From an uncultured Clostridia bacterium (GTDB lineage Bacteria; Bacillota; Clostridia; TANB77; CAG-508): a stretch of 64,000 nt of DNA. Below, piece by piece: positions 23,410-25,809 of this stretch. The first letter of the stretch is position 1, and every line of letters starts with the position of its first letter. Below the pieces are notes generated by a model, which worked only from the letters and a program-made list of their open reading frames with translations, did no database searches and had not been told where the DNA came from. The stretch covers positions 1,318-65,317 of the forward strand of contig CANQDX010000002.1 in assembly GCA_947594065.1 (NCBI GenBank), read 5' to 3'. The position numbers and the translations under genes were made by a program.

Positions 23410-23778
23410 TTATGCTCCTGTTACAGATCTACCAAAGCCTACTACAGCTTTACCAACTGCAGAAGCACCAAATACTAACACAGCACCAACTAGATATGGT
23501 ATCATAGATTTTTTGTACTCTGCTTTTTCTTCTGTACTGCCCATCATATACTTAATACCTAAAACAGCAACTATGATAACAGCTAAAATCATACCAACAT
23601 TAGTAATAATAGTTAATATTGTACTACCAATATTTTCAATAGTTGTATCTGCACCATCTTGTAAAGTTTTGTCTGCTGTAACTTGGTTTAAATCGACTAC
23701 TGCAAATACATTTGTACAAATACAAGCTAACATAATAACGATTACAAGTACATTTAAAACTTTTTCTAGTTTTTTCAT
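23410..23778 (-). CDS. VirB2/TrbC-like (Maff2-like) pilin candidate 2
   Basis: 122 aa with a signal peptide (..ACICTNVFA). Two hydrophobic helices are joined by a charged loop (GIKYMMGSTEEKAEYKKSMIPYLVGA). The C-terminal ~75 aa closely match the end of the 507-aa ORF. Confidence 0.6.
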   Translation of the reverse strand: MKKLEKVLNVLVIVIMLACICTNVFAVVDLNQVTADKTLQDGADTTIENIGSTILTIITNVGMILAVIIVAVLGIKYMMGSTEEKAEYKKSMIPYLVGAVLVFGASAVGKAVVGFGRSVTGA

Positions 23779-23844
23779 ATAATTTCCTCCTTTTTATTTT
23801 ATAATTTATTTTAAATATCTTATTTACTAAGATAACATTAAAAA

Positions 23845-24216
23845 CTAAAAATTGCTAATAAGCGTAACCATTAATTTCCATATTCCAAATGAACTAAATA
23901 CAACCAAGCAACTTATTAGATATGGAAATAATGATTCTTTTACTTCTACTTTTTTATCTACTCCAGCCATCATATATTGAATACCCAGTATTGCTCCAAC
24001 TATAACAGCAACACCTGTTGCAGCTGCTAAAAGTAAATTATATATTGTATTGGAAGCTGTTTTTAATTTAGTTGTGTCCATAGTTACATCAGTATGACTC
24101 TGTCCAGTATCTGTCCAATTTTTTGCCTTATCAAAAATATCTCCAACTGCTAGTACGCTTTGAGACAGTAAGATAAATATGACAAAACTAGTTAACATTA
24201 TTTTAACAAATTTCAT
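23845..24216 (-). CDS. VirB2/TrbC-like (Maff2-like) pilin candidate 1
   Basis: 123 aa with a signal peptide (..LSQSVLA). Same helix-loop-helix topology (GIQYMMAGVDKKVEVKESLFPYLISC). Confidence 0.55.
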   Translation of the reverse strand: MKFVKIMLTSFVIFILLSQSVLAVGDIFDKAKNWTDTGQSHTDVTMDTTKLKTASNTIYNLLLAAATGVAVIVGAILGIQYMMAGVDKKVEVKESLFPYLISCLVVFSSFGIWKLMVTLISNF

Positions 24217-24251
24217 ATTTTCTCACCATCCTTTATTTTTATACTAACTTT

Positions 24252-24280
24252 ATTATACAATAAATTACATATTTTTGCAA
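24252..24280 (-). promoter_or_regulatory. near-consensus sigma-A-type promoter for the two small pilin genes
   Basis: On the minus strand: TTGCAA (24275-24280), 17-nt spacer, TATAAT (24252-24257). It lies just after the stop of the 507-aa gene. Confidence 0.5.
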
Positions 24281-24285
24281 CTTTT

Positions 24286-25809
24286 TTATAATTTATTAAT
24301 AGTTGTACCCCATTTTTGTATTACTCCAACTACTGCACTAATTCCAAATAATAGAAATGCTCCTACTAGATATGGTATTAAATCTTTTTTGTATTCTGCT
24401 TTTTCGTCTACACTTCCAATCATATATTTTATACCAATAATTGCTGACATTAGAACAGCAAGTATCATTCCGATATTAGTTATAATGGTTAATACTAAGC
24501 TTATTTTTTTTTCTACTTCGTTAGCCTCTAAAGGGCTAATATCACTCGGTGTGTATTTGTTTGTATCTGATAAAACATCTATAAAAGGAACCCTATCTCT
24601 ACTTTCTCCTGTATATAAACCGCCAAGTTCATATCTTTTTACTGCATTTTCTACTCTTCCATCAATATTGTTTTGTAACTCTTCTGAAGTACTTATTTCT
24701 GGCTTATACTGTTCCTGACGTTCGGTCTTATACGTAGCAAATATAGCATTTTCCCAAGGGACATAATAAAATGTATAGGAACATACATAAAAAGTAAGGT
24801 AATCTCTTTGTATCATAGGCTGGTCTTCAATTGTACATCGCTTTACGCCACTTAGTCCAGCTTGATCAAGAAGTTTTTTCAAACCATCGTCTTTAGCCCA
24901 CTTTGAAGAGTCTACCCAACTCCATCTCCTTATCCATCCTGAAGGTTCAAATCCCGTTACTTTTCCTGCTTCATCTTTAATAAATTTTCCTGGAGACATC
25001 ATTTGCTCGTGTTTTGGTAATATTCTCAAGGGATTTTCCCCAATATACACTCTTTCCATCATTAATTGAGCCGAAGCAGTAAGTTCGTCATCGCTGTAAT
25101 TTGTAGGTTCATCTACTTTTTGATTATTTACATACATACCTCCCCCAATATGAAGAATTCTTTCAGCCTCTCTTTTAGCATATTCTTTATCTCCATCTTG
25201 TACATCGTGTATAGTTATTTTAATTATATATGACTCATCATTATCATAAACTACATATAGTACTGACATTTGTCCTAAAGCCATCTTAGGGACAATCTCT
25301 ATTGTCACATCTGCTCCATTATTCCAAAATCCGTCTACTTTATCAACATTTATTACAAAATCCATCTCTGACGAATTATATCCCCAGCCAAAATCGTAAG
25401 TTTCACCATTTATCGTACACTTAGTCCAATTATCTAAATTGCTTTCCTTCATTGAATTTATCTTATCTAGCCCATATATATCCATTTTCAAATATTGTTT
25501 TATCGTAATTGGAGAGTTTGTATAAATTGGATTATCTTCTGATGCCCAAATATCATAATTACGAATATAAATAGTTTTATGAGGTATTTTTGCAGATATT
25601 TTATAATCATCAACCGAATAATGTCCTTGAGTTGCCTGTACTGCTACACTCCTTCTAGTTACAAGATTTTTTTCTTCATTATTAATTGTTTTATATGTAC
25701 CACTAAAACTTTCTTCTGCAGCATTTACATTTTTTTCTAGTGAAAATAATATGATAATAAAGAAAAATGCTGTTAACAATATATATTTTTTATTTATTAT
25801 TTTATTCAT
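24286..25809 (-). CDS. secreted ~400-aa domain fused to a C-terminal VirB2-like pilin module (candidate tip/adhesin pilin)
   Basis: 507 aa with a signal peptide (..LEKNVNA). The central domain is not recognised. The last ~80 aa (LTIITNIGMILAVLMSAIIGIKYMIGSVDEKAEYKKDLIPYLVGAFLLFGISAV) are near-identical to the 122-aa pilin. Confidence 0.6.
   Translation of the reverse strand: MNKIINKKYILLTAFFFIIILFSLEKNVNAAEESFSGTYKTINNEEKNLVTRRSVAVQATQGHYSVDDYKISAKIPHKTIYIRNYDIWASEDNPIYTNSPITIKQYLKMDIYGLDKINSMKESNLDNWTKCTINGETYDFGWGYNSSEMDFVINVDKVDGFWNNGADVTIEIVPKMALGQMSVLYVVYDNDESYIIKITIHDVQDGDKEYAKREAERILHIGGGMYVNNQKVDEPTNYSDDELTASAQLMMERVYIGENPLRILPKHEQMMSPGKFIKDEAGKVTGFEPSGWIRRWSWVDSSKWAKDDGLKKLLDQAGLSGVKRCTIEDQPMIQRDYLTFYVCSYTFYYVPWENAIFATYKTERQEQYKPEISTSEELQNNIDGRVENAVKRYELGGLYTGESRDRVPFIDVLSDTNKYTPSDISPLEANEVEKKISLVLTIITNIGMILAVLMSAIIGIKYMIGSVDEKAEYKKDLIPYLVGAFLLFGISAVVGVIQKWGTTINKL

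Follow-up and report, generated by a model that had tools for sequence, protein, structure and literature searches.

What do three neighboring genes for VirB2-like pilins do in an uncultured Clostridia bacterium (TANB77; CAG-508), and why does one of them carry a large additional domain? The question is raised by contig CANQDX010000002.1, of which a stretch of 64,000 nt, called the window below, was analyzed. An earlier note on this DNA had described the genes as a major, a minor, and a tip pilin that share one module, the last of them displaying a secreted domain on the outside of a filament; this interpretation is partly supported. The genes are read here, with a probability of roughly 0.55, as the pilin array of a chromosomal, vertically inherited type IV secretion system (T4SS) of the Gram-positive type, which would form a pilus with a head-bearing minor or tip pilin and have a role in contact or exchange. 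A scan of one genome per species found relatives in 177 genomes, from which 80 loci were fetched. Together with L001 and L002, which both hold the window's own sequence, they form a set of 82 loci in which synteny was followed by tblastn of the window's proteins. The anatomy of the array was taken from 64 complete arrays, found with a profile of the pilin module.

The three open reading frames (ORFs) neighbor one another on the minus strand, at the positions given in the earlier note. The first encodes a head-bearing pilin of 507 aa (24286..25809, minus strand), recognized from its ORF, Pfam, BLASTP, and AlphaFold2. The second encodes a paralogue of 123 aa (23845..24216, minus strand), whose class is conserved at the second position of nearly all arrays, and the third a pilin of 122 aa (23410..23778, minus strand), which is the last gene of the array and the best conserved of the three. 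BLASTP connects each of them with the other two. Over 98 residues, the 122-aa protein shares 48% identity with the C-terminal end of the 507-aa protein (E=7e-27), over 118 residues it shares 31% with the 123-aa protein (E=3e-14), and the 123-aa protein matches the 507-aa tail with 46% identity over 39 residues (E=1e-10). The module occupies the C-terminal ~95 residues of the 507-aa protein. This tail had been called almost the same as the 122-aa protein; the homology is beyond chance, while 40 identical residues out of 54 (74%) in the stretch quoted there make that wording somewhat generous.

Pfam matches were judged against the curated cut-offs of 27.9 bits for TrbC/VirB2 (PF04956) and 26.6 bits for T4SS_pilin (PF18895). 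The 122-aa protein passes both with 42.5 and 39.5 bits, respectively. Residues 437-497 of the 507-aa protein pass the second with 32.4 bits, and its tail stays under the first with 22.4 bits. All three pilins begin with a signal peptide that ends in V-x-A, where cleavage would take place. AlphaFold2 places two helices in the 122-aa protein (43-79 and 82-120) and two in the tail of the 507-aa protein (426-464 and 467-506, pLDDT 83-90), with a two-residue turn between them in both cases. The proposed TrbC/VirB2 topology is therefore borne out by the Pfam thresholds, the signal peptides, and the helix-loop-helix models, and also by the place of the genes directly upstream of PrgI/VirB3 and VirB4. 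The accompanying label "Maff2-like" is not, since none of the three pilins matches the Maff2 profile of Pfam at E<=0.1. An assignment to DUF3852 was dropped (23.7 bits, cut-off 25). On NF045849, the Mbov_0395 family of pilin-like conjugal transfer proteins, the 122-aa protein reaches 34.4 bits, under the cut-off of 40. Homologues of the 122-aa protein number more than 1059, and the best 120 of them are 52-79% identical to it. The charged loop EEKAEYKK between the helices is nearly invariant, and because it is the best conserved part of the module, the similarity is not a compositional effect. All three proteins carry a module of the TrbC/VirB2 type.

It could be argued that the three C-termini are ordinary hydrophobic anchors unrelated to VirB2. 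A fold search cannot separate the predicted hairpin from ATP-synthase c subunits and other hairpins, and the 123-aa protein lies under the Pfam cut-offs, both of which would suit such a trivial similarity. The probability of this explanation is close to nil, as two of the three proteins pass curated Pfam thresholds, the charged loop is the best conserved part, and at least 70 loci keep the genes at the same place ahead of VirB3 and VirB4. In addition, hhalign relates the module to a further protein of the cluster with a probability of 94-97%, against 0.4% for controls. The earlier note had named ordinary membrane anchors as the finding that would overturn its proposal, and the thresholds, the fixed T4SS position, and the hhalign controls rule it out. 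Fold searches, which the same note had proposed for the large domain of the 507-aa protein, were run with the 122-aa and the 507-aa model and gave no significant match in the Protein Data Bank (PDB).

The 507-aa protein consists of a signal peptide (residues 1-30; nt 25720-25809, minus strand), a head (residues 31-~412; nt 24574-25719, minus strand), and a neck with the VirB2-like hairpin (residues 413-507; nt 24289-24573, minus strand). The identical 507-aa ORF is present on two independent metagenome contigs, so the fusion is real and not an artefact of assembly; more than 50 further distinct long versions of this type of protein exist. It is a true fusion of a signal peptide, then a head, then a pilin module, as had been claimed. 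When the full protein was used as the query, 59 proteins of 279-579 aa were retrieved. Almost all of them have signal peptides, and apart from the identical sequence they align only with the C-terminal 12-33% of the query. T4SS_pilin was matched in 38 of the 38 aligned members, and Pfam found nothing consistent in their heads.

The head itself has no relatives in the searches made. An exhaustive HMMER search with residues 31-425 found no homologue among 1.84 billion representative proteins, and in a BLAST comparison of 77 heads the head of the window is a singleton. In the closest relatives, where VirB4 is 93% and the tail 54-56% identical, tblastn gave no match for this head even with the cut-off at E<=10. 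Of 50 protein pairs in which the tails share 85% identity or more, 27 differ in their heads, which are unrelated or related only in part. The tails of P0019 and P0021 are 100% identical to that of P0030, and their heads show no similarity to the head of P0030. Because the window's head is an orphan and identical tails bear unrelated heads, it can be concluded from sequence comparison that the heads are exchangeable cassettes. A short conserved neck, F..DVL..D...Y.P.D, stands directly before the module and is likely the junction at which heads are exchanged. Cassette-like orphan heads are the predicted signature of a surface-exposed domain that binds a ligand or is exposed to an antagonist. The idea that the head is on the outside agrees with the predicted topology, which puts it outside the cell, and with orphan, exchanged heads of the kind that exposure would predict.

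The same pattern would suit polymorphic effectors or toxins that the T4SS presents or delivers to competitors, with the tail as the trafficking and anchoring part. A conserved trafficking part joined to a cassette-like variable part, the rapid turnover of heads between close relatives, and a weak chitosanase-like Pfam match in one family member are all in line with this explanation. It is nevertheless quite improbable, since no toxin or enzyme family was detected in the window's head, the head-bearing gene is followed by the second pilin and not by a small immunity-like gene, and the first pilin of most arrays is nearly headless. No match to a VirB5/TraC family was found in the head with Pfam or NCBIfam either.

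A fourth copy of the module lies in the same cluster. The VirB6-like polytopic protein of 1064 aa (16573..19767, minus strand) is recognized by a weak TrbL_3 match in a homologue and by sub-threshold matches to pLS20_p028 and MMCAP2_0566. It starts with a signal peptide and ~105 residues, which are followed by a hairpin at residues ~138-215 (19123..19356, minus strand), detected by hhalign and by the pilin HMM. The hairpin includes GIRMIMSTIAQDKAKYKSMF, parallel to the pilin sequence GIKYMMGSTEEKAEYKKSMI. A family of 64 VirB6-like N-terminal sequences was gathered by BLAST, and not by pilin matches. Compared with the alignment of the pilin module, hhalign gave this family a probability of 96.7% (E=3e-10), and with the independent alignment A2 a probability of 93.6% (E=2e-7); the controls, namely the PrgI family and later VirB6 helices, gave 0.4% each. 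The pilin profile matches 53 VirB6-like ORFs, a precomputed PF18895 match is present on ~27 of 120 VirB6-like homologues, and the VirB6-like protein encoded by a C. botulinum plasmid reaches 23.1 bits with PF18895. These profile comparisons show that the VirB6-like protein holds a predicted pilin-like hairpin homologous to the module. A 24-nt (8-residue) tandem repeat of ~8 copies was also seen in this gene (nt 18106-18299 or 18106-18333, minus strand); it gives the hydrophilic part of the protein an acidic stretch of low complexity (…DAGANDQS…).

The pilin genes form arrays of 3-7 members directly upstream of PrgI. Three genes were found in 39 of the 64 complete arrays and four genes in 21. 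The second gene nearly always belongs to the 123-aa class, and the last gene or genes to the 122-aa class. The first gene varies in its N-terminal extension, which ranges from ~0 to 400 residues, with a near-absent head in most arrays. Its length is 110-422 aa (median 141.5), so that the 507 aa of the window exceed all of them; it reaches at least 190 aa in 14 of the 64 arrays, and an extended gene occupies a later position in four. Three paralogue classes in a fixed order fit the proposed division into major, minor, and head-bearing subunits. The 122-aa protein is the candidate major subunit because it is best conserved and last in the array.

A terminator-like hairpin with a U-run, followed by a TATAAT box, lies between the pilin array and the PrgI gene (23333..23366, minus strand; dG -13.5 kcal/mol, z -5.0). 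Of 62 related loci, 59 have a hairpin and then a T-run at this place, as against 1.6% of shuffled sequences. On the other side, a terminator-like hairpin with a 13-bp stem (25985..26014, minus strand), located 3' of the upstream Spo0E-like gene, parts the pilin operon from that neighbor. The hairpin at 23333-23366 and its conserved equivalents show that the array is a transcription unit of its own, closed by a conserved terminator-like hairpin. A separate pilin unit suggests subunits that are produced in excess of the machinery. A sigma-70 promoter scan was not used, as it returned 30 sites where 24 are expected in such AT-rich DNA.

The anatomy of the array bears on a further explanation, in which the pilin modules never leave the envelope. 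They would be part of a channel or stalk that spans membrane and wall, and the 507-aa protein would be a membrane-tethered accessory, such as a wall-zone scaffold, a peptidoglycan- or polysaccharide-binding factor, or a short-range adhesin. VirB2 is needed in some Gram-negative systems even where no pilus is made (PMC12857230), the module inside the VirB6-like membrane protein implies that it can serve as a fixed membrane element, and Foldseek gave no structural support for a filament. Against this, a terminator-bounded array of 3-7 paralogues, one of them highly conserved, resembles structural subunits made in bulk, and cassette exchange with orphan heads is hard to explain for a domain buried under the wall. 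An arrangement confined to the envelope is a rather unlikely explanation.

The genes downstream of the array encode the T4SS itself, all on the minus strand. The PrgI/VirB3-like protein of 112 aa (22952..23290) scores 27.1 bits on Pfam PrgI, where the cut-off is 27, and is present in 74 of the 82 loci. It is followed by a TraC-like membrane protein of 403 aa (PF26593; 21740..22951), assigned from a precomputed Pfam match on the identical protein; it is likewise present in 74 of 82 loci and finds nothing in the PDB. The VirB4-type ATPase of 649 aa (19787..21736) matches Pfam P-loop_TraG, AAA_10, and DUF87, and the VirB4 structure 4AG5 in the PDB (E=3e-27); its matches to the CD1110 and Mbov_0397 VirB4 families of NCBIfam are both below threshold. 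After the VirB6-like gene, the cluster continues with a bitopic protein of 169 aa (16037..16546), found at the same position in 60 of 82 loci, and with a cell-wall hydrolase of 422 aa (14755..16023), which carries glucosaminidase and CHAP domains by Pfam, is an analogue of VirB1, and holds the same position in L083 and L084. A membrane-anchored protein of 446 aa (13399..14739) ends the cluster. VirB4, VirB3/PrgI, a VirB6-like protein, and a wall hydrolase are thus gathered in one cluster, which is the set of a Gram-positive (MPF-FATA-like) T4SS.

The same cluster is kept in the same order in at least 70 of the 80 fetched loci. For the pilins, PrgI, the TraC-like protein, VirB4, the VirB6-like protein, and the 169-aa protein, this order is shared by 60-82 of the 82 loci, the count differing from protein to protein. 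All 80 fetched loci come from metagenome-derived uncultured gut Clostridia of humans, rabbits, chickens, and sheep, including Clostridium sp. CAG:508. CAG-508 is the namesake of the major family within TANB77, an uncultured order (PMC11680825). The "conserved pilin of TANB77" described in that work was considered and rejected as a counterpart; it belongs to a Tad/CpaF-type cluster, which is a different system, and none of its genes are in the window.

Housekeeping genes surround the cluster. The upstream flank holds a Spo0E-like gene, two M16 peptidases, rpsU, ftsH, tilS, dnaB, rplI, and gdpP, and farther upstream are SpoIIE, RNase III, TatD, and other housekeeping genes. Past the other end of the cluster lie a spore photoproduct lyase and a D-Ala-D-Ala carboxypeptidase. 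In ~30 loci, the flanks include M16 peptidases. In the closest relatives (L003-L009), identity to the window falls from 93% for DnaB, 90% for FtsH, and 93% for VirB4 to 77% for PrgI and 72-74% for the TraC-like protein. It then reaches 66-69% for the 122-aa pilin, 56-57% for the 123-aa pilin, and 54-56% for the 507-aa tail, and is lowest for the VirB6-like protein (37-45%), the 169-aa protein (33-38%), and the 446-aa protein (~30%); the hydrolase lies in the 30-45% range with these three. The cytoplasmic motor tracks the housekeeping genes, and the predicted outward-facing parts, not just the head, diversify fast. This gradient, with VirB4 in step with DnaB and FtsH, indicates a vertically inherited resident organelle rather than a recent mobile insertion.

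Transfer genes were sought among all ORFs of at least 70 aa in the 64 kb and within ±10 kb of the T4SS in L083 and L084. The window's ORFs yielded no relaxase, coupling protein, or integrase; those outside the T4SS belong to housekeeping or sporulation families or have no match. No relaxase or coupling protein was found within ±10 kb in L083 and L084, and no repeat boundaries were found in the 64 kb. Within these ranges, the linked relaxase, coupling protein, and integration or replication functions that mark a conjugative element are absent. Because no coupling protein or relaxase is nearby, contact, adhesion, or non-conjugative exchange is likelier than the transfer of a mobile element.

The alternative is that the cluster belongs to an integrated conjugative element, or to what remains of one, as its mating-pair-formation module; the head-bearing pilin would then be a mating adhesin, a counterpart of the PrgB type, and DNA would be transferred. 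VirB4 is 41-42% identical to the VirB4 of Clostridium botulinum and C. beijerinckii plasmids, which have the same local gene order with one VirB2-topology gene upstream of a PrgI-like gene, and the nearest NCBIfam families are conjugal-transfer families. The missing transfer genes and repeat boundaries, the same housekeeping flanks in ~30 loci, and the divergence in step with DnaB and FtsH speak against it. So does a tblastn search of the 122-aa pilin against 72,556 plasmids, which gave no match. A conjugative element is therefore improbable here. As for the plasmids themselves, those of C. botulinum (pINGR16-02E1, locus 7018-13448; L085) and C. beijerinckii (L086) are typed as non-mobilizable, and their VirB4 proteins are the nearest among the 72,556 plasmid records. 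L085 carries a single VirB2-topology gene of 138-141 aa, annotated as hypothetical, just upstream of the PrgI-like gene, with a sub-threshold T4SS_pilin score of 19.1 bits; L086 has the same gene layout by annotation.

The preferred reading, a pilus with a head-bearing subunit, would work as follows. The pilins would be inserted by Sec and their signal peptides cleaved, which would leave them in the membrane with the N-terminus out, the loop in, and the C-terminus out. VirB4 would then extract them, and they would polymerize on the VirB6-like platform, whose own pilin-like hairpins may form the base layer. The shaft would be built of the 122-aa protein. The 507-aa protein would be a minor subunit that enters first and so comes to the tip, or that is sparse along the shaft, and its variable binding head would be presented to a partner cell or to the surface of a host. 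Contact or exchange, rather than conjugation of a mobile element, would probably be the function of the apparatus. In the solved conjugative pili (F-pilus and T-pilus), the loop between the helices lines the lumen and the termini are at the outer surface, so an N-terminal head would point outward. As ~380 extra residues per subunit cannot pack in a VirB2 lattice, the head-bearing subunit would be best placed at the tip or sparsely on the shaft. In the current Gram-negative model, docking of the tip protein VirB5 on a VirB6 pentamer comes first, and VirB2 subunits join at the base afterwards (PMC12857230). Precedents are the pilin arrays in relaxase-less T4SS of Patescibacteria (PMC10633639, PMC12102498) and the VirB2-type pili of monoderm archaea, for which related data on pilus structure are available (PMC9905601). 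A non-conjugative role has also been proposed for the essential pilin-array T4SS of Southlakia (PMC10633639).

Several points weigh against this reading. The filament, the surface exposure, and the binding are predictions from the genes, and the tip or minor role follows from steric reasoning and is not a result. The 123-aa protein scores 23.7 and 22.3 bits, under both Pfam cut-offs, and is tied to the family solely via its BLASTP similarity to the 122-aa and 507-aa proteins. Foldseek gave no match at E<=0.001 for the 122-aa model against the PDB, and its top matches were generic helical hairpins, including ATP-synthase c subunits; a hairpin fold is not diagnostic. A profile search of PDB sequences with the 122-aa family returned chance matches only and no solved pilin. 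The AlphaFold2 model of the head is unreliable (pLDDT <50; mean pLDDT 55.7) and does not support an adhesin fold, and because the window's head is a singleton, no alignment-based model is possible. The 507-aa model likewise had no significant Foldseek match in the PDB, and weak Ig-like matches were disregarded. The thick Gram-positive wall may preclude or alter a VirB2 pilus. Finally, the absence of a coupling protein and relaxase covers the 64 kb and ±10 kb of related loci, not genomes. An extension of the reading to the whole clade is tentative: reduced-genome gut Clostridia of the TANB77 group may build a true VirB2-type pilus through the Gram-positive wall, nucleated on a VirB6 with a built-in module and capped by a strain-swapped receptor-binding head, for specific contact or exchange, in parallel with the T4SS of epibiotic Patescibacteria.

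The Gram-negative TrbC/VirB2 pilins (VirB2 of the T-pilus, TraA of the F-pilus, and TrbC of RP4) share with the window's pilins their Pfam family, a signal peptide, two hydrophobic helices, a short basic loop, and a gene just before virB3-virB4. In contrast, the host of the window is a monoderm spore-former with several pilin paralogues, one of them with a ~380-residue N-terminal head. Its system is without an outer-membrane complex, VirB5, and VirB11, and no likeness of its pilins to solved pilins was detected with a sequence profile or with Foldseek. The literature searched held no report of a VirB2 fused to a large domain.

The T4SS of Patescibacteria (Southlakia epibionticum, Nanosynbacter) has VirB3, VirB4, and VirB6 of the Gram-positive type and an array of 2-11 divergent VirB2-like pilins beside virB4, to which the array of the window is comparable (PMC10633639, PMC12102498). 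It is chromosomal, conserved in its clade, and without a recognizable relaxase or coupling protein (in the window, none nearby), and its hosts, like those of the window's cluster, have reduced genomes and are hard to culture. The window's cluster thus has the features of a relaxase-less pilin-array T4SS; the comparison uses published descriptions and implies no kinship. Unlike Patescibacteria, the host belongs to Clostridia (Bacillota), which reviews say lack VirB2, and its paralogues fall into ordered classes, the first of which bears cassette heads.

For the head, modular type IV pilins such as PilB of Streptococcus sanguinis provide a functional analogy only. In PilB, a bulky domain is grafted on a pilin module, and this minor pilin has a direct role in adhesion (bioRxiv 10.1101/2021.01.27.428410). 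Type IV pili are unrelated to T4SS and VirB2, and the extra domain is C-terminal in PilB and N-terminal in the window. The head-bearing pilin would also correspond to tip adhesins of the VirB5/TraC type as a proposed first-assembled, tip-located, target-binding subunit on a VirB6 platform. It has no sequence similarity to VirB5, and its head is joined to a VirB2 module instead of being a separate protein. In the Trw system of Bartonella, a T4SS that lacks a coupling protein, the pilus subunits TrwL and TrwJ are comparable in occurring as multiple copies of variable sequence (PMC12857230).

The nearest relatives that are curated or from cultured organisms are the pilin-like protein Mbov_0395 (NF045849) of the Mycoplasma integrative and conjugative element (ICE), with its neighbor MMCAP2_0566, and the pilin-like gene of the C. 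botulinum and C. beijerinckii plasmids. These systems sit on mobile elements, have a single short pilin-like gene, and lack both an array and a head-bearing paralogue, and the scores of the window's proteins on NF045849, pLS20_p028, and MMCAP2_0566 are all under the curated cut-offs. According to reviews up to December 2025, Gram-positive T4SS lack VirB2 pilins, and Patescibacteria are the sole exception (PMC12857230, PMC4027160), which agrees with the rarity stressed in the earlier note. Curators already list pilin-like proteins in monoderm T4SS, namely Pfam PF18895 and NCBIfam NF045849. Because these families and the Clostridium plasmid genes exist, a VirB2-like gene in T4SS of Bacillota is under-reported rather than unknown.

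Three things appear to be new, namely an ordered array conserved throughout a clade of Clostridia, a modular, head-bearing pilin whose heads are exchanged as cassettes, and the pilin module embedded in the VirB6-like protein; no description of any of them was found in the literature searched. The locus represents ordered VirB2-like arrays kept across many species of Clostridia, unlike the statement in the reviews. VirB2 pilins that bear a large, exchangeable head would constitute a new class, the "modular conjugative-type pilin", and offer a concrete candidate for the choice of target by such a machine. The pilin-like hairpin of the VirB6-like protein leads to a testable model of pilus nucleation on the VirB6 platform. 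The uncultured host clade is abundant in human guts and has been linked to immunotherapy response via a different (Tad-type) pilus cluster (PMC11680825), and its surface organelles are therefore of practical interest.

A few further features of the window concern its surroundings. The T4SS lies beside ftsH, tilS, dnaB, rplI, and gdpP (26616-36798) and farther from spoIIE (50875-53349), all of which are origin-proximal in Bacillus subtilis. Patescibacterial T4SS loci have likewise been reported close to the origin (PMC12102498). GC skew and gene orientation flip near 10 kb, with plus-strand genes at 1-10500 and minus-strand genes at 10500-64000. The flipped block holds two plus-strand genes (226..4741), one for a protein of 1045 aa with an NlpC/P60-like C-terminus (226-3363) and one for a protein of 451 aa (3386-4741). 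Their homologues adjoin the T4SS genes in 11-12 related loci, and in other genomes they stand beside the T4SS on the same strand; in the window they are on the opposite strand, ~9 kb from it. Fragments of a D-Ala-D-Ala carboxypeptidase (6903-7181 and 7298-7618) resemble the intact copy at 11056-12309. The arrangement resembles a local inversion or rearrangement, bordered by a dac gene that appears duplicated and decayed. Two small adjoining ORFs of 94 and 104 aa (9859-10472, plus strand), which lie at the edge of this block, look like a candidate antitoxin/toxin pair of the Phd-YefM / RelE-ParE type.

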